Source of the DNA: Patescibacteria group bacterium
GTDB taxonomy: Bacteria; Patescibacteriota; Microgenomatia; UBA1400; PJMF01
DNA: 64,000 bases
Direction: 5' to 3'
Assembly: GCA_041747555.1 (NCBI GenBank)
Contig: JBGTEY010000009.1
Coordinates: 26,473-90,472, forward strand
In this document: one piece after another, positions 5,478 to 63,096 of the stretch
Layout: each line of letters begins with the position of its first letter
How positions within the stretch are numbered: position 1 is the stretch's first letter
Notes under the pieces: generated by a model
Database searches by the model: none
What the model was told of the DNA's origin: nothing
Seen by the model: only the letters and a program-made list of their open reading frames with translations
Program-made: the position numbers and the translations under genes

Positions 5478-7034
5478 TTAGTTAGGATACTCGATCCAGT
5501 ATTCACCCTCAGGTGAAGTATCTGCGTCGTAGGCATCGTCTGTGGCACTTCCTCGATATGCTGCTCTACAAAAACCACTCGGGTTGCTGCATCCGCCAAC
5601 GGGGAAATTCTCTGCAACAGCAGGTATACAGTCGAGTCCGACTTCTGTACATCCACCGGTCACGTCGCCGTATCGGTTGGTGTAGAGGTTGAAGGTTACG
5701 AATCCATTTTTTGAGCCATCTTCGTCATATGCTGATCCGTCAAATTCAATAGGGATCTGTACCCAAGTTCTAAAGAGTGCAGCTGCGCTATTGTCATTAC
5801 CACAGGTGAAGAGATTCGTTTCTGGGTCTAGACACCAGAAGTGCATTTTGTCTGTCATGGTAGAACTTGGAGGCATACCGATATTACTCAATGTAATTTC
5901 GCCCGTGCTTTCCCCTTGGAGAAAGTGAATTCCATGTCCAACCCGTAAGCGATTTCTTCCTTCTGGATCGCTTGGTAAGTAATTGTAAACATTGCCTTCA
6001 CTTTGCCATGAGTCTAAGCTATTTTGCCCGACTGAGTGAATTCTGTAGGGAGCAAGTTCAGCTGGTGTATCTGCAAATTCTGCAGGATCACCAGGCATTG
6101 GCAGGTAGTCGCCACGCTGTGGGTAGTTGAGTCTGCCAAAGTCGAGCCAACCACCGCCTCGATAGATTCCGCAATTTTCTTCTGACAAGTCGCCTTGATT
6201 ACAAGCGCGTGCTTCGAGCCATACACTATGAAATCGGGTGAGAGCACCCATCTCGCCACCGATTTGGTGGTATTGGACGCGAGCATCAGTAATGGCATGC
6301 GTACCTAGAAGGAGTGCGCCATTAATACTTTCTTGTGAAGTTTTGTTTTTGTAACCCAGCCATTTGTAGCCTTCATGCTTGCAGGTGTTCTCTGTGCACG
6401 TGCCAGCTGCGTAACTCTCAAAAGAATCAGACGCACCGGCATAGGTTTGCCAAGGATACGATATTTCACCACCTGCCCATTCATAGACTTGGGTGCCAAA
6501 CACATCATCAAAATCATGGGGGTTCATCTTGTGTTCGTGGTCGTAGTGACAACCGAGTTCTTCATTCCATAAACCATGCCAAGAGGTTGCGTCATGGTCA
6601 GCATCTGCGCATTTTGGTGATCCTGCGACTGGTGTTGCACCAGGTTGCGCTGGACTTGCGGATGGTGTGGAACTAGGCGGAGAACTTGGTGTGGCTCCAG
6701 GTTTACCGACTATGATTGGATCTGGCAAGAGCGAAGGGAGTGGTTTTACAGAAGGATCAGTGACTGGAGGACGCAAGTGTTGTCGTTCTACACGAAGCGT
6801 TTCGCTATTCACCACCTCTGGTCTTGATATAGCCCGGATGGTAGATTTTTGTTTTTCTGGTGAGGTTTCTGCCTGTTGCTCGGTGAGAAGTCGTTTGAGC
6901 ATTGTTTCTCGATTACTAGGTTGAGATCTGGAGGAGCTTTGTCCTTGAGCTGCTTGAGGGAGCACAGCAAGAACGATCGCAACCATAAGGAGCAAAGAGA
7001 AGACAGCTTTTATTTTTTGAGGGGGGATTTTCAT
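5478..7034 (-). CDS. Secreted hypothetical protein (signal peptide, Pro/Ser/Thr-rich linker, Cys/Trp-rich domain)
   Basis: N-terminal signal peptide (MKIPPQKIKAVFSLLLMVAIVLAVLPQAAQG), a P/S/T-rich linker (PGATPSSPPSSTPSASPAQPGATPVAGSP), and many Cys and Trp residues. I do not recognise a catalytic motif. Confidence 0.5.
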   Translation of the reverse strand: MKIPPQKIKAVFSLLLMVAIVLAVLPQAAQGQSSSRSQPSNRETMLKRLLTEQQAETSPEKQKSTIRAISRPEVVNSETLRVERQHLRPPVTDPSVKPLPSLLPDPIIVGKPGATPSSPPSSTPSASPAQPGATPVAGSPKCADADHDATSWHGLWNEELGCHYDHEHKMNPHDFDDVFGTQVYEWAGGEISYPWQTYAGASDSFESYAAGTCTENTCKHEGYKWLGYKNKTSQESINGALLLGTHAITDARVQYHQIGGEMGALTRFHSVWLEARACNQGDLSEENCGIYRGGGWLDFGRLNYPQRGDYLPMPGDPAEFADTPAELAPYRIHSVGQNSLDSWQSEGNVYNYLPSDPEGRNRLRVGHGIHFLQGESTGEITLSNIGMPPSSTMTDKMHFWCLDPETNLFTCGNDNSAAALFRTWVQIPIEFDGSAYDEDGSKNGFVTFNLYTNRYGDVTGGCTEVGLDCIPAVAENFPVGGCSNPSGFCRAAYRGSATDDAYDADTSPEGEYWIEYPN

Positions 7035-7217
7035 AGTAATCCTTTATGTTATTACTATACAGAAAAGTATATATCAGATATGTACTAATTACAATGGCAT
7101 CAATTTATGCATCACGAGTTAGGATACACCTCGTGGTTGTGGATTCCGTGTACTTGGGGGATGTGATGCATGTCTGACAATTGTGTAGCCTCCAGTATTT
7201 GTGCTACAGTAACAATT

Positions 7218-8465
7218 ATGAAAACAAGACGTTTATTACTTGCAATTTTATTGGCGACCGGAGGACTGCTATTTTCTGTTTTAGGACTATCCCAAATAGT
7301 GAATGCCCAGCAATTAGTGAGCTGGAACAATCCAGGCTGGGGGTCATCTACAGATGTGATTCATTCAACTGTTAAAAGTCCTGCGATGGGTAATATTGAC
7401 GTTGGATACACTATATATTTACCACCTGGATACAACTCGAGTCAAAATAGATATCCTACCGTTTATTTTTTACACGGTATACAAGGTCATGAGTGGAATT
7501 ATCACAATAGTTTGGGAAGTAATCCCAACGGAATTGTTCAGCTGGTTAAATCTGGTGCTGTGGAACCGATGATTTTGGTTTTTCCAAATGGTGGTTCTGG
7601 ATTGAATTACATTGATGCACCAGGTAATTGTGCAGATACCAAAGCCTGTCCTGAATCAATGTTAATTAATGAATTGCTGCCCCATATCGATCAAACATAC
7701 CGAACCATTCCAGAGAAAGAATTTAGAGCAATTCAAGGATTCTCTATGGGTGGCATGGGTGCGACCTACCTTGGAACAAAATATCCAGAATTGTTTAGTT
7801 CAATTGCAACACAGTCAAGTGCCTGTCAACTGCTAGCAAACTGTGAATCCGTAAAAAATCACATTCAATCAAACATCTCATCAAATGCATCGTACTTAAG
7901 AGATACGGTGGCATTTAGAGTTTCATATGGATCTCAAGAAGGAAGTCCGAGTGGAAGTGGTATCGCCGGTTGGCAATCGTCCTTACACACCACGCTAAAT
8001 GGGTATGGAATCCAAACAGAATTACTCAGTTTATTAGGTACAGGTCATAATATGAGTGCGCAACACTCGGTGGTGAACCCAAGCACAAGTCGAACATTTG
8101 GTTTAGATACACTGATGTTCCATAGTGATAATTTTGGAAATGGCTCAACACCTCCTGGGCCGAGCGTACAACCATCAGCATCGCCAACAACAATTGCGTC
8201 GCCGGTTTCCTCTCCAGTTGCGTCACCGATCGCTTCCCCAGTGTCATCTCCAAACCCAACTGATGAACCTTCGCCGTCCCCCAGCACTGAGGAGCCACTA
8301 TTCCCTGACTACAATAGAGACGGATTAATTACGTATTCTGATTTCGAAATGCTGCTACCTGCGTTGTTTGGTTCGAATTGCGCCATTAACCTTTTGGGTA
8401 GCTGTGAGATTGACCTTTTTGACTACAACGCGTTTATGACTGCATATGAAAGTGAGAATCTATGA
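7218..8465 (+). CDS. Secreted esterase (alpha/beta hydrolase, putative esterase family) with a C-terminal dockerin-like module
   Basis: Signal peptide (MKTRRLLLAILLATGGLLFSVLG). Nucleophile elbow GFSMGG in an esterase-like context (TVYFLHGIQGHEWN). A P/S-rich linker is followed by a Ca-binding dockerin repeat DYNRDGLITYSD (D-x-N-x-D-G-x-I-x-x-x-D). The track ORF begins 16 codons earlier at 7170. Confidence 0.6.
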   Translation: MKTRRLLLAILLATGGLLFSVLGLSQIVNAQQLVSWNNPGWGSSTDVIHSTVKSPAMGNIDVGYTIYLPPGYNSSQNRYPTVYFLHGIQGHEWNYHNSLGSNPNGIVQLVKSGAVEPMILVFPNGGSGLNYIDAPGNCADTKACPESMLINELLPHIDQTYRTIPEKEFRAIQGFSMGGMGATYLGTKYPELFSSIATQSSACQLLANCESVKNHIQSNISSNASYLRDTVAFRVSYGSQEGSPSGSGIAGWQSSLHTTLNGYGIQTELLSLLGTGHNMSAQHSVVNPSTSRTFGLDTLMFHSDNFGNGSTPPGPSVQPSASPTTIASPVSSPVASPIASPVSSPNPTDEPSPSPSTEEPLFPDYNRDGLITYSDFEMLLPALFGSNCAINLLGSCEIDLFDYNAFMTAYESENL

Positions 8466-9304
8466 ACACTGCCAATACTACAGATCAGTCCACCCACACT
8501 AATCACACGACCTCAGAGCATTCGATAGGTTCACACGATCAGAGAACACATCATCCAGCCCATCTTGACCGATCAAAAAAAATTATGGCAGGACTTGCGA
8601 TTGCATTTTTTACTGTAATTGGCCTCGGAATTTTGGTTGTTAATTCACAACAAGCACAAGATCAAAGGACACAAGCAGATGTAATTGACGGTGCATCGCT
8701 GTATTTTCTTCCCCAACAAGTTACGCTCCAGTCTGGTACGACGAGTTCAGTATCACTGTTGATAGATCCAAAACAATATGAAGTGACAGCAGCTGACATT
8801 CGGTTGCAGTACGATCCTACCAAAATTGAGGTAGTCTCTGTCTCACAAGGGCAGTACTTTCCTTTAGAGTTACGGCCTTCAAGCATCAATGGGTTTGAGG
8901 GTGTGGTGACTACGACGCTTGGGCATCGACCAGGTGAAGTTTTGAGAATTTTGTCGGCTCCTGTACTTACAGTCGAGTTTCGAGCCCTTACAAGTGGAGA
9001 AAGTATGATTTCCGTGCTCGGAGAATCAGTTGTAACTGCTTTAGGTATCAACGAAGATGTGCTGACTGATTTAGGAAGCTTAGTCATCACTGCGCAGGGC
9101 GGAAGAGGTGAGGGAACAGGCGCCCAACCTACTTCAAATCCGACACGTCCAAGTCCCTCACTAGGACCTCGTCAACAACAGCAACAACAAACTCAACAGC
9201 CTGGATCATCATTTCAAGAAGCGCAAGTTGATGTAACTGTCGAAGATCAAATTATTGTTCCGAAGCCTCCTGAGGAGACAATCCCCCCAAGATTTCTCCA
9301 ATAA
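8462..9304 (+). CDS. Membrane-anchored cohesin-like domain protein
   Basis: His-rich cytoplasmic tail, a single TM helix (MAGLAIAFFTVIGLGILVV), then a beta-sandwich region ending ...AADIRLQYDPTKIEVVSVSQGQYF, matching the cohesin f-x-l-x-Y-D-p-x-x-L-e-v-v-s-v motif. Gln-rich C-terminal tail. Confidence 0.5.
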   Translation: MNTANTTDQSTHTNHTTSEHSIGSHDQRTHHPAHLDRSKKIMAGLAIAFFTVIGLGILVVNSQQAQDQRTQADVIDGASLYFLPQQVTLQSGTTSSVSLLIDPKQYEVTAADIRLQYDPTKIEVVSVSQGQYFPLELRPSSINGFEGVVTTTLGHRPGEVLRILSAPVLTVEFRALTSGESMISVLGESVVTALGINEDVLTDLGSLVITAQGGRGEGTGAQPTSNPTRPSPSLGPRQQQQQQTQQPGSSFQEAQVDVTVEDQIIVPKPPEETIPPRFLQ

Positions 9305-10355
9305 GTTGGGGTCCTTCGTAAATCATTCCCGTAATTAATTGCACTAAATCTGCACCGAGGTTGAGTTTGGTTTGCGCATCCTGCGGTGAAAAAATTCCTC
9401 CAGTGCCGATGATTGTGAAGCGGTTTTTGAATGTTTTTCTAGTGAGGGCTATGTGCGCGTTTGATCGCTTCCAGGTTGGCTTACCGCTTAAATTGCCTTG
9501 ACTTGTTGCCCAATTTCGTCGATCATTTTCGCTGATGTCTGGGTTTGCATGGTCTTTGGTGAGGTTTCCAAAATTAACACCTGCTGCAAAGGATTGTTGC
9601 GCGACTTTGAGTAGTGCTAGAGTTTGATCTTGGGGGAGGTCGATAGGCATTTTAATATAGACAGGGTGGCTAATCGGCACAATAGTGAGTGCAGTAAGTA
9701 AGTCACTGAGGCGATCTGGTGTGGTAAATGGTTGACCACCTTTTAAATTGGGGCAACTTATATTGAGTTCGTAAAAATCATGTTCAACCTCAGACTCCTC
9801 GAAGAGCTGAAAGCTGGCTACGATGTCTGCAATTTGCCCATATTGATGTGTATATTCACGATTGGTGCTGCCAATGCTTATGCCAATTGGAATTCTGAAA
9901 ACTCGATTTGAAAGTTTTTTGATAATTGCTGGCGCACCCTGACTTTTAAAACCTTTATTAACCAAAAGTGAGTTTGAATCAGGATACCTACCAAGTCTGG
10001 GACGTTGGTTTCCCCCATATGAACGAAGTGTCACTGTACCCATCATTGCAAATCCAAAACCAAGATCTGGCAAAATATCTGGAAGAGAGCCCGTGTAGTC
10101 AAATCCAGCGGCAAGTCCAACAGGGTTTGGAAAATAAATACCGTCAAGTGTTTTTCCTAGATCTCGATGTGGGACAGAAAATAAGGCTCTTGTTAGAGAC
10201 TGTGTCATTTTTGATGTACTCAATATCTCTCCAGTGCGAACACAATTGTTGTGGACTAACTCTGGATCTACTGCAAAAAATAGAGGTTTTGCGATAGTTT
10301 TGTATGCAGCTCGAATGAGTCGCTGTTTTGTAGTGGAGTTTGGTGGTACAGTCAT
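9252..10355 (-). CDS. pyrD: Dihydroorotate dehydrogenase (quinone), class 2
   Basis: Motifs LNISCPN and IIGTGGI, FMN-binding TIM barrel, and an N-terminal membrane-association region. The 3' end overlaps the convergent upstream gene by about 53 bp. Confidence 0.8.
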   Translation of the reverse strand: MTVPPNSTTKQRLIRAAYKTIAKPLFFAVDPELVHNNCVRTGEILSTSKMTQSLTRALFSVPHRDLGKTLDGIYFPNPVGLAAGFDYTGSLPDILPDLGFGFAMMGTVTLRSYGGNQRPRLGRYPDSNSLLVNKGFKSQGAPAIIKKLSNRVFRIPIGISIGSTNREYTHQYGQIADIVASFQLFEESEVEHDFYELNISCPNLKGGQPFTTPDRLSDLLTALTIVPISHPVYIKMPIDLPQDQTLALLKVAQQSFAAGVNFGNLTKDHANPDISENDRRNWATSQGNLSGKPTWKRSNAHIALTRKTFKNRFTIIGTGGIFSPQDAQTKLNLGADLVQLITGMIYEGPQLIGEILGGLSPQEASEQ

Positions 10356-11747: not shown

Positions 11748-12848
11748 ATGAAATGGCCACTTGTTCGACGATTAGCAATCATTGCCTTCTTTTTGGGATT
11801 GAATATTGTTTTGGGAATGCGTTTTTTGCGAGAAGCCCAGAGTCAGGTGCATCCAATTGTCACGACCATTTTGAGGCAATTTGGAGTGGCAACAAACCAC
11901 CCAGAATGGGTTGAGGAGTTCATTCCCGCTACTGATCTCGAAGAAATTACCATTGATCCACTTGAGGTGGCAGAAAGCGTAAATCGCAGACGAGTACTTG
12001 ATGGAGTCCCCGCGCTTGAGTTTAATACTAAGCTTGCATCTGCCGCGGCGATACTCCTCGATGAGTTGCGAGAGGATGAGTACAATTTAGAAAGAGAGCT
12101 CAATTCGGATTCATTGAAAGACGCACTTGATGAAACTGGGTACGAGTACGAATGGGTGAGCCACAATGCGCTAGTCGGACCGCTCTCAACTCAGGCGATT
12201 ATGACCGGTTGGTTCTCGAGTAACACTCAGACAGAGGCATTGCTCAATCCCGAATTTACCGAACAAGGAATTGCCATCGCTGTGATAAAAAATGACGAAC
12301 TTGGGACCGTTGGCGTCACCGTTCAACTACTTGCGCGGCCAATGGACGAGGGAGTTGTTCCGGCTGCAGGGGGAGCGACACAACCCAACACAGGTTCCCC
12401 AAGTAGTCAGCCAAAACCTACCGCTCCGCCCCCTAACATTGGTGATACAGAAGTACTTCTTGCGCTCAACGCATATCGACAGTCTCACGGTGTTCATCAG
12501 TTGGTTCAGCATGATCAGCTTTGTAGGTATGCAGAAAAAAGAGTTCAAGACTTGATAGCGCACGGTAGTTTAGATAGTCATGCAGGATTTAGGAGCGATT
12601 TTGATGGTGGATACCCGCCACAACTCGAAGGATATCCAGGTGGCACCATCGGTGAAAATTTGGCACACCAATTTTGCAGAAATATGACAACGGGAGATTC
12701 GTTTGTTGCTCAATCTGGCACTGCGCTTATTGAATGGTGTTTTGATTCATCTACTTCTGGGCATCGTGAGGCACAATTGAATCCTCGCTATAACAATGTC
12801 TGCGTTCGACATGGTGAGAATATGTATGTGATTATTTTTGGCGACTAA
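11748..12848 (+). CDS. Membrane-anchored CAP (SCP/PR-1/YkwD-like) domain protein
   Basis: N-terminal TM anchor. C-terminal SGHREAQLNPRYNNVCVRHG matches the CAP S-x-G-H-x-x-N-I-L-x-P motif, and a second CAP-like module lies upstream. Confidence 0.55.
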   Translation: MKWPLVRRLAIIAFFLGLNIVLGMRFLREAQSQVHPIVTTILRQFGVATNHPEWVEEFIPATDLEEITIDPLEVAESVNRRRVLDGVPALEFNTKLASAAAILLDELREDEYNLERELNSDSLKDALDETGYEYEWVSHNALVGPLSTQAIMTGWFSSNTQTEALLNPEFTEQGIAIAVIKNDELGTVGVTVQLLARPMDEGVVPAAGGATQPNTGSPSSQPKPTAPPPNIGDTEVLLALNAYRQSHGVHQLVQHDQLCRYAEKRVQDLIAHGSLDSHAGFRSDFDGGYPPQLEGYPGGTIGENLAHQFCRNMTTGDSFVAQSGTALIEWCFDSSTSGHREAQLNPRYNNVCVRHGENMYVIIFGD

Positions 12849-62774: not shown

Positions 62775-63096
62775 TCCCCTGTAGCTCAACGGCAGAGCGC
62801 CCGGCTGTAAGATATTGCAGCTTCCGTCAGAAATGGCGGAATGATAATTGGGTGAACTGCGGGAAGCCTAACCTTTGTATCGCGAAGTATGGTAATCCGC
62901 AGCCAAGCCGTGTTGAAAGACACGGAAGGTTCAGAGACTAGGTGTGTACACCCAGACCCCGCAAACTGCGGGGCAGAGCGCCCGACACCTTCATTGACAC
63001 CGTCAATAAGGTGATGAGATAGTCCATGCCAGCCAGAAATGGTTGGGTCACGTGTAACCGGTAGGTTGGAGGTTCGAATCCTCCCGGGGGAGCCAT
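62775..63096 (+). tRNA. tRNA (most likely Asn-GUU; alternative Thr-UGU) interrupted in the anticodon loop by a group I intron
   Basis: 5' exon TCCCCTG-TA-GCTCAACGGCAGAGC-G-CCCGG-CTGT. 3' exon TAACCGGTAGGTTGGAGGTTCGAATCCTCCCGGGGGAGCCA (T-arm, acceptor, discriminator G, encoded CCA). The candidate P1 pairs exon GGCTGT with intron GCAGCT, with U.G at the splice site. Confidence 0.7.
62809..63055 (+). ncRNA. Group I self-splicing intron (~247 nt) within the tRNA
   Basis: Canonical core elements: P (TGCGGGAAG), Q (AATCCGCAGC), R (GTTCAGAGACTA), and S (GAGATAGTCC). P7 pairing GACTA/TAGTC. P9 hairpin CCAGCC-agaaa-TGGTTGG. Terminal G before the 3' exon. Confidence 0.7.

Follow-up and report, generated by a model that had tools for sequence, protein, structure and literature searches.

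How a bacterium might hold a secreted degradative enzyme on its own surface is the question raised by two adjacent genes at positions 7218–9304 of a 64-kb stretch of contig JBGTEY010000009.1 (this whole stretch of 64,000 nucleotides is referred to below as the window). The question is of some interest for the Candidate Phyla Radiation (CPR, or Patescibacteria), whose members have tiny genomes and rely on other cells or external polymers, and in which the organization of surface enzymes is poorly known. The initial annotation proposed that the first gene encodes a dockerin-tagged esterase and the second a membrane-anchored, cohesin-like protein. Our analysis supports this general picture while modifying several of its details: the esterase ends in an atypical, dockerin-like tail, the downstream protein carries a single cohesin domain, and the two genes probably form a translationally coupled cassette that tethers the esterase to the surface of the cell producing it, a reading to which we assign a probability of about 0.75.

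An overlapping esterase and cohesin gene pair

The source organism is a Microgenomates/Patescibacteria (CPR) bacterium, and the closest homologs carry the names ‘Microgenomates group bacterium’ and ‘Patescibacteria group bacterium’. Two same-strand open reading frames (ORFs) fill the interval, the esterase gene at 7170/7218–8465 (+) and the cohesin-protein gene at 8462–9304 (+). Because the N-termini of eight esterase homologs align from M17, which corresponds to ATG 7218, and not to the upstream extension, this ATG is the likely true start of the esterase (residue numbers of the esterase follow the count in which M17 is encoded by ATG 7218); the version beginning at ATG 7170 had no exact match in the protein records. 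The genes had been described as translationally abutting, and they in fact share 4 nucleotides (ATGA) at the junction (...aat cta TGA for the end of the esterase, ct ATG Aac for the start of its neighbour). All of the motifs originally quoted for the two ORFs (GFSMGG at residues 190–195, DYNRDGLITYSD and IRLQYDPTKIEVVSVSQGQYF) are present, and the ORF positions agree. The parts of the two genes are as follows.

7218–8465, + strand: esterase gene, 415 amino acids from ATG 7218 (the mechanical ORF starts at ATG 7170), comprising in order a signal peptide, a CE1-like alpha/beta-hydrolase domain, a Pro/Ser/Thr linker and a dockerin-like tail
7218–7307, + strand: Sec-type signal peptide MKTRRLLLAILLATGGLLFSVLGLSQIVNA followed by QQ (...VNA/QQ), read from the sequence, with a putative cleavage site
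7737–7754, + strand: nucleophile elbow G-F-S-M-G-G (Ser192), residues 190–195, invariant in nine homologs
8145–8306, + strand: Pro/Ser/Thr-rich linker, residues ~326–379 (~55 residues), recognized by its composition and its variable length in the alignment
8307–8462, + strand: dockerin-like C-terminal module, residues 380–431 (52 residues)
8307–8372, + strand: tail segment 1, a canonical Ca loop D-x-N-x-D-G-x-I-T-x-x-D and then a helix
8388–8453, + strand: tail segment 2, a degenerate loop N-x-L-x-S-C-x-I-D-x-x-D-Y-N and then a helix, with the invariant C404 and C412
8462–9304, + strand: cohesin-protein gene, 280 amino acids, its start overlapping the esterase stop (ATGA)
8582–8641, + strand: single hydrophobic helix, residues 41–60, IMAGLAIAFFTVIGLGILVV, with R37, K39 and K40 ahead of it; a predicted N-in signal anchor
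8642–8692, + strand: juxtamembrane segment with the motif N-x-Q-x-Q-D-Q-R-T-Q-A, in which R69, Q71 and A72 are invariant in seven homologs
8693–9097, + strand: cohesin domain, residues 78–212, matched by Pfam Cohesin and modelled with a predicted local distance difference test score (pLDDT) above 90
9098–9301, + strand: Pro/Gln-rich disordered C-terminal tail ending in ...PPEETIPPRFLQ, with pLDDT below 50

The product of the first gene is predicted to be a CE1-like serine esterase with an intact active site. It matches Pfam PF00756 with an E-value of 2.1e-22 (80.5 bits, against a cut-off of 22), contains a G-x-S-x-G nucleophile elbow, and retains a conserved histidine (H293, within a GxGH motif) that is invariant across nine esterase homologs. 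The signal peptide has a 6-residue c-region, and A46 and Q47, on either side of its putative cleavage site, are invariant in the same number of homologs. A carbohydrate esterase activity is plausible, as the closest solved structures belong to CE1 ferulic acid esterases (7xrt at 1.2e-21 and Clostridium thermocellum XynZ, 1jjf, at 2.1e-15); this alignment spans only residues ~50–205 of the protein. The NCBIfam library returned distant, sub-threshold matches only, the best being a model for bifunctional xylanase/feruloyl esterases, with a polyhydroxyalkanoate depolymerase model also among them. The proline- and serine-rich linker noted ahead of the tail corresponds to the Pro/Ser/Thr-rich stretch listed above, and in the AlphaFold2 (AF2) model, which is poor overall (mean pLDDT 57.6, with the tail below 50), it lacks secondary structure and also has a pLDDT below 50.

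The assignment of a cohesin to the adjacent protein is borne out by both profile and structural comparisons. The protein, in which the motif IRLQYDPTKIEVVSVSQGQYF is found, passes the Pfam Cohesin model (PF00963) with 26.3 bits as a whole and 27.7 bits for the domain alone (cut-off 24.1), and seven out of seven members of its family match the same model, the best at 5e-7. The AF2 prediction, built from a 4-sequence alignment, shows residues 78–212 as an all-beta domain (pLDDT >90), in line with the nine-stranded beta-sandwich (jelly-roll) fold that defines cohesins. When this domain was compared with the Protein Data Bank (PDB) using Foldseek, each of the top 50 matches was a cohesin (probability 1.00), mostly of type I; the best was OlpC (4dh2, E 7.3e-10), itself a single-cohesin surface anchor, and the target-normalised TM-scores for single-module type I cohesins were ~0.7–0.8. 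A sequence profile of the seven family members gave weaker matches to the PDB (E 0.05–0.55), of which the six best are all cohesins, and the YDPxxLE (YDPxxxE) signature aligns with cohesins 1aoh and 4ums. We therefore conclude, from sequence and model together, that the downstream protein carries one type-I-like cohesin domain; the NCBI annotation already names one of the homologs ‘cohesin domain-containing protein’.

Cohesin homologs from six other loci are 23–57% identical to the window protein and share its layout, which consists of a cytoplasmic N-terminus, one hydrophobic helix, an NQDQRTQA-like motif of the form N-Q-D/E-Q-R-T/S-Q-A (a similar motif is present in locus L092), the beta domain and, last, a Pro-rich stretch. 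The C-terminal tail differs in length among the homologs and is absent in L001, while a PIxPQL-like end is conserved in four of them. The hydrophobic membrane anchor claimed for this protein corresponds to the single helix at residues 41–60, which is present in all seven family members; AF2 places a helix at residues 38–57 with a pLDDT below 50 (10-residue block means of 40–49), lending weak support to it. Pfam finds no surface-layer homology (SLH) domain in the protein, which has the hydrophobic helix instead, and the sequence is predicted to act as an N-in signal anchor. A profile search of a word-indexed protein database with the cohesin family recovered 4 proteins only, and scanning metagenomes with the clade II cohesin alignment returned no relatives. 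A six-frame search of the window for additional copies of either module gave none, so that the 64 kb contain a single tail and, next to it, a single cohesin.

An atypical dockerin and the gene that accompanies it

Our alignment extends the dockerin module, originally placed at residues ~390–431, to residues 380–431. The module is conserved in nine esterases (D380, D391, C404, N407, C412, D418, Y419 and N420 are invariant), and the window tail scores 4.1e-28 against the profile of its own family. Searched against the PDB, this profile retrieves solved dockerins first (8x39, 5nrk_B, 2y3n_B, 4fl4_A, 2ccl_B and 1ohz_B, from 4e-11 to 1.3e-6), with calmodulins ranking behind them from ~2e-6. The cut-off of the Pfam Dockerin_1 model (PF00404) is exceeded by two homologous tails, at 37.5 bits (P0009) and 25.9 bits (P0008), with two matched stretches in each, and the others score 14–22 bits against it. 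In a sliding profile–profile comparison of the tail with itself, an offset of 27 residues gave a score of +12.4 and all other offsets from 16 to 39 were negative, which indicates that segment 2 is an in-register copy of segment 1.

Close inspection of the two loops reveals how far the copies have diverged. Oxygen-bearing ligand residues (D/N/S/T) occupy positions 1, 3, 5, 9 and 12 of loop 1 in nine out of nine tails, and a search of the window for D-x-[ND]-x-[DN]-G, covering the six reading frames, gave one match, DYNRDGLITYSD at 8307–8342. Loop 2 retains positions 1, 5, 9 and 12, has a cysteine at position 6 in all nine tails, and is preceded, three residues ahead, by the second invariant cysteine. 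Although of low confidence (pLDDT below 50), the AF2 model of the tail has helices at residues 389–399 and 416–430, the places expected for the helices of a dockerin. We accordingly assign the tail, on the strength of its sequence, to the dockerins as a compact, Cys-containing, atypical subtype. Dockerins with only one canonical Ca loop are known to be functional and to bind the cell-anchoring cohesin of ScaE (PMC12270676). Precomputed annotations list only PF00756 for the tail-bearing esterases; standard Pfam annotation thus misses the tail, and dockerin-bearing CPR proteins are probably under-counted. A degenerate DNA pattern designed on C-x-IDIFDYN gave two further hits, both rejected as chance matches (one in the interior of an unrelated protein, the other outside any ORF of at least 100 amino acids).

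Esterase and cohesin genes abut or overlap in seven distinct pairs, set in at least five different genomic contexts (the window; L001; L008; L002, with the same pair in L003, L004 and L011; L005; L006, the same as L007; and L009, the same as L010), and a cohesin homolog lies immediately downstream of every full-length esterase homolog examined. Two of these pairs, the divergent L001 and L005, are found in a single Microgenomates metagenome-assembled genome (MAG), GCA_049289655.1, where the cohesin of L001 shares 57% identity with the window protein and that of L005 26%; this could reflect two orthogonal docking pairs in one cell or a mixed bin.

The tail is also found without the esterase. When the tail profile was run against 1.84 billion representative proteins, unrelated cargo proteins were also seen to end in the complete module, which thus behaves as a mobile module of secreted enzymes of differing catalytic types:

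P0232: a PF11790 glycosyl-hydrolase-core protein with the tail
P0245: a protein with a sub-threshold exo/endonuclease/phosphatase (EEP) match, with the tail
P0248 and P0250: tail-bearing proteins without an assigned catalytic family, P0250 having only a weak, sub-threshold match to a metal-binding motif

At the P0232 locus the next gene downstream encodes a homolog of the membrane-helix and cohesin protein (E 2.3e-22 to the family profile). The converse also holds. Among 80 esterase-homolog loci from species-representative genomes, 79 have no such cohesin, and 78 of these also lack the tail (the other, L042, carries a canonical dockerin); L011 alone has both a cohesin and a Cys-type tail. In Dojkabacteria homologs of the esterase, three SLH domains replace the tail and no cohesin is encoded nearby, which argues that the tail occupies a surface-retention slot. 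Overall, the partner gene tracks the tail and not the catalytic domain. This behaviour, the domain identities and the conservation of the pair are established by the analysis.

Two further observations concern individual members of these sets. The Dojkabacteria locus L012 (1–2981, + strand, in the Candidatus Dojkabacteria MAG contig JAGQLH010000049.1) encodes two tandem paralogous esterases, each with three C-terminal SLH domains (5e-27 and 1e-27); a sister CPR lineage thus equips the same enzyme with a different surface module. The 168-residue protein P0141 joins an unrelated multi-pass membrane segment to a final 59 residues that match the P0007 tail at every position, and it is more likely to result from mis-assembly or a gene-call error than to be real cargo.

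Proposed surface tethering and competing explanations

In the model that we favour, the esterase would be exported via the Sec pathway and its signal peptide removed, while the cohesin protein would be inserted into the cytoplasmic membrane in an N-in orientation through its single N-terminal helix, displaying its one cohesin at a distance of just ~17 residues from the membrane. The tail of the esterase would then dock on this cohesin, probably in a Ca-dependent manner through the canonical first loop, with the degenerate second repeat perhaps stabilised by a disulfide between C404 and C412. The enzyme would thus be held on the surface of the producer, with a linker long enough for the catalytic domain to extend through the wall or over it. 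We infer the physical binding (from the co-occurrence of tail and cohesin gene in genomes), its Ca dependence, the disulfide, the retention at the membrane and the substrate.

Several observations weigh against this model. The tail had been called a canonical dockerin repeat, a description that suits the residues of loop 1 and fails for the tail as a whole: the second repeat is degenerate and flanked by cysteines, position 3 of its loop is hydrophobic (L/I/V) in nine out of nine tails, the repeat period is 27 residues versus ~33–36 in the aligned dockerins, and only segment 1 (profile positions 2–31) aligns to solved dockerins. Two of the checks proposed by the initial annotation had the following outcome. 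In the profile searches the Cohesin model was passed by the downstream protein, but the window tail alone falls below the Dockerin_1 cut-off (12.6 bits, E 0.16, cut-off 22.9), though two homologous tails exceed it; in the structure prediction the cohesin domain was modelled at a pLDDT above 90, but the esterase tail stayed below 50. EF-hand models score the window tail equally with Dockerin_1 (12.9–13.9 bits on a 66-residue version of the tail and up to 14.4 bits on a 58-residue one, with cut-offs of 25–26). Beyond the tail itself, no cohesin gene lies within 5–6 kb of three other genes for tail-bearing cargo, and these loci weigh against a strict 1:1 rule linking tail and cohesin. Lastly, signal peptidase might cut at a conserved (T/S)-Q-A motif 12 residues past the helix of the cohesin protein, and the cohesin would in that case be freed from the membrane.

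It is improbable, in our view, that the tail is a generic Ca-binding, EF-hand-like module that stabilises the enzyme or binds the wall, with the cohesin-like protein engaging a glycan or some other dockerin protein, even though the window tail scores alike against the two types of model, the tail profile also matches calmodulin at ~2e-6, and some tail-bearing cargo genes have no neighbouring cohesin. The EF-hand alternative had been raised at the outset, and when it was checked none of 10 tails passed any EF-hand threshold, whereas two pass Dockerin_1; the E-values of solved dockerins are better than those of calmodulin by as much as five orders of magnitude; loop 1 is preceded by a proline-rich linker, without the predicted entering helix that an EF-hand helix-loop-helix has; and the tail and cohesin gene strictly co-occur in eight distinct cassettes. 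The gene order raises another possibility. In effector–immunity systems the gene for a secreted hydrolase typically overlaps a small membrane-protein gene downstream of it, and the overlap at the junction of the window pair fits an effector–immunity or enzyme–inhibitor pair. The membrane protein would then shield the cell from the hydrolase that it secretes, and the cohesin-like fold and the Ca loop would be incidental. Such a pair is nevertheless very improbable here, as the partner goes with the tail and not with the catalytic domain: it also lies downstream of the unrelated PF11790 hydrolase that bears the same tail, and is absent beside the 78 tail-less esterase homologs as well as the SLH-bearing ones. 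Its fold, moreover, matches only cohesins among the PDB top 50.

An explanation that keeps the cohesin–dockerin pair intact but dispenses with the membrane anchor is likewise unlikely. According to it, the N-terminal helix is part of a long cleavable signal peptide that is cut after the (T/S)-Q-A motif, and the resulting esterase–cohesin heterodimer is soluble or held on the wall by the Pro-rich C-terminal tail of the cohesin protein. The invariance of R69, Q71 and A72, the small residues at -3 and -1 in seven out of seven homologs (and a similar arrangement in L092), and the conserved PIxPQL-like C-terminal end in several homologs are all compatible with such processing. However, the putative site lies 12 polar residues past a 20-residue hydrophobic helix, compared with a c-region of 6 residues in the esterase signal peptide, the cytoplasmic N-region of 37–50 residues is atypical of a signal peptide, and the C-terminal tail is missing in L001. 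A signal anchor is therefore favoured on account of the long cytoplasmic N-region, the length of the helix and the distance that separates it from the (T/S)-Q-A motif.

The tethering of the esterase to its producer could also be one instance of a broader arrangement. It is conceivable, though less likely than not, that this CPR lineage uses a membrane-bound single cohesin as a general socket for several secreted cargos carrying the short-period dockerin subtype with its Cys-flanked second loop. Possible candidates for such cargo are the esterase, the glycosyl-hydrolase-core protein, the EEP-like enzyme and the proteins of unknown fold, the tails of which are largely missed by Pfam. Were this to be the case, ultra-small episymbiotic bacteria might hold degradative enzymes at the zone of contact with their host or substrate.

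Known cohesin–dockerin systems and the surrounding genes

The cassette is non-cellulosomal: it has a single cohesin domain, and the 64-kb window contains one tail and no match to a carbohydrate-binding module (CBM). The closest known system functionally is that of OlpA and OlpC from Clostridium (Acetivibrio) thermocellum, in which there is also one cohesin per anchor and the enzyme is tethered directly, without a scaffoldin. OlpC (4dh2) is the best structural match of the window cohesin and OlpA (3ul4) is also in the list, with a sequence identity of only ~13–16%. The two systems differ in the anchor, which consists of SLH wall modules in OlpA and OlpC and of a predicted N-terminal transmembrane helix in the cassette; unlike them, the cassette also combines enzyme and anchor in a two-gene operon and relies on an atypical, short dockerin. 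On the enzyme side, the cellulosomal feruloyl esterase modules of C. thermocellum XynY and XynZ are similarly of the PF00756/CE1 type and fused to a dockerin. In contrast to these proteins, the window esterase has no xylanase or CBM module and aligns over its N-terminal ~150 residues only, its dockerin is atypical, its host is a CPR bacterium, and no scaffoldin is evident in the window.

As for the tail, the group-2 truncated dockerins of Ruminococcus flavefaciens resemble it in having one canonical Ca loop and a cell-anchoring cohesin partner, ScaE (PMC12270676). ScaE, however, is a sortase-anchored part of a very large cellulosome, while the window tail keeps a degenerate second repeat with two invariant cysteines. 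The structural matches further include non-cellulosomal cohesins, which serve purposes other than cellulose degradation, from Archaeoglobus fulgidus (2xdh) and from Clostridium perfringens glycosidases (2vo8, 2jh2 and 2w1n), which lie within soluble or secreted multidomain proteins and are not membrane-anchored products of a gene beside that of their cargo. The Dojkabacteria esterases of L012, which are 43% identical to the window esterase over residues 98–332, follow the same logic of a C-terminal surface-retention module after the catalytic domain, but achieve it with three SLH domains rather than with a dockerin tail and a separate cohesin.

The initial annotation held that a module of this kind is unusual outside the cellulosome-forming Firmicutes, a statement that earlier reports render too strong. 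Expressed cohesin and dockerin genes have been reported for Candidatus Shapirobacterales, a Microgenomates lineage (PMC9123182), as has an essential dockerin-domain protein in a Saccharibacterium (PMC10633639); modules of both types that are not part of cellulosomes are on record from across the domains of life (Peer 2009, as that work is cited in PMC2930009). In the open-access literature searched, we found no description of this operonic cassette of transmembrane cohesin and tail, or of this Cys-flanked dockerin subtype. With one socket and one enzyme in two genes, the cassette approaches the simplest natural form of a cohesin–dockerin system, and it departs from the anchors compared here in being transmembrane instead of SLH- or sortase-based, in the 27-residue period of its dockerin, and in the degenerate second loop with two invariant cysteines. 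Its small size makes the pair suitable for asking how little of a dockerin suffices for binding, and it may also provide a compact orthogonal tag for surface display.

The remaining observations concern the DNA around the cassette. A scan of 6900–9500 for promoters and terminators found sites no more numerous than in shuffled sequence. Upstream of the esterase, and divergently transcribed, lies the gene for a 518-residue secreted protein (5478–7034, - strand), which we considered as a third component of the system and rejected: homologs precede the cassette at only the two closest loci, L001 and L008 (75% and 65% identity), and the upstream genes in L005, L009 and L006 are unrelated to it. The protein contains a Pro/Ser-rich linker and a Cys/His-rich motif, CHYDHEHKMNPHDFDD, matches no Pfam or NCBIfam family, and may be an uncharacterised metal-dependent extracellular enzyme. 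Downstream, the protein encoded at 11748–12848 (+ strand) contains two stretches of the CAP (cysteine-rich secretory protein) family (PF00188, E 2.3e-13); it is membrane-anchored or secreted, is predicted to be extracellular, and is syntenic in L001. Near the far end of the window, a group I intron (Rfam RF00028, 81.1 bits, E 4.8e-19) is located at 62799–63046, within an apparent intron-split tRNA gene at 62775–63096 (+ strand) that receives no ARAGORN call. Ahead of the intron is what resembles the 5' half of a tRNA gene, starting with TCCCCTGTAGCTCAACGG..., and after it the matching 3' half, ending in ...GGTTCGAATCCTCCCGGGGGAGCCA.

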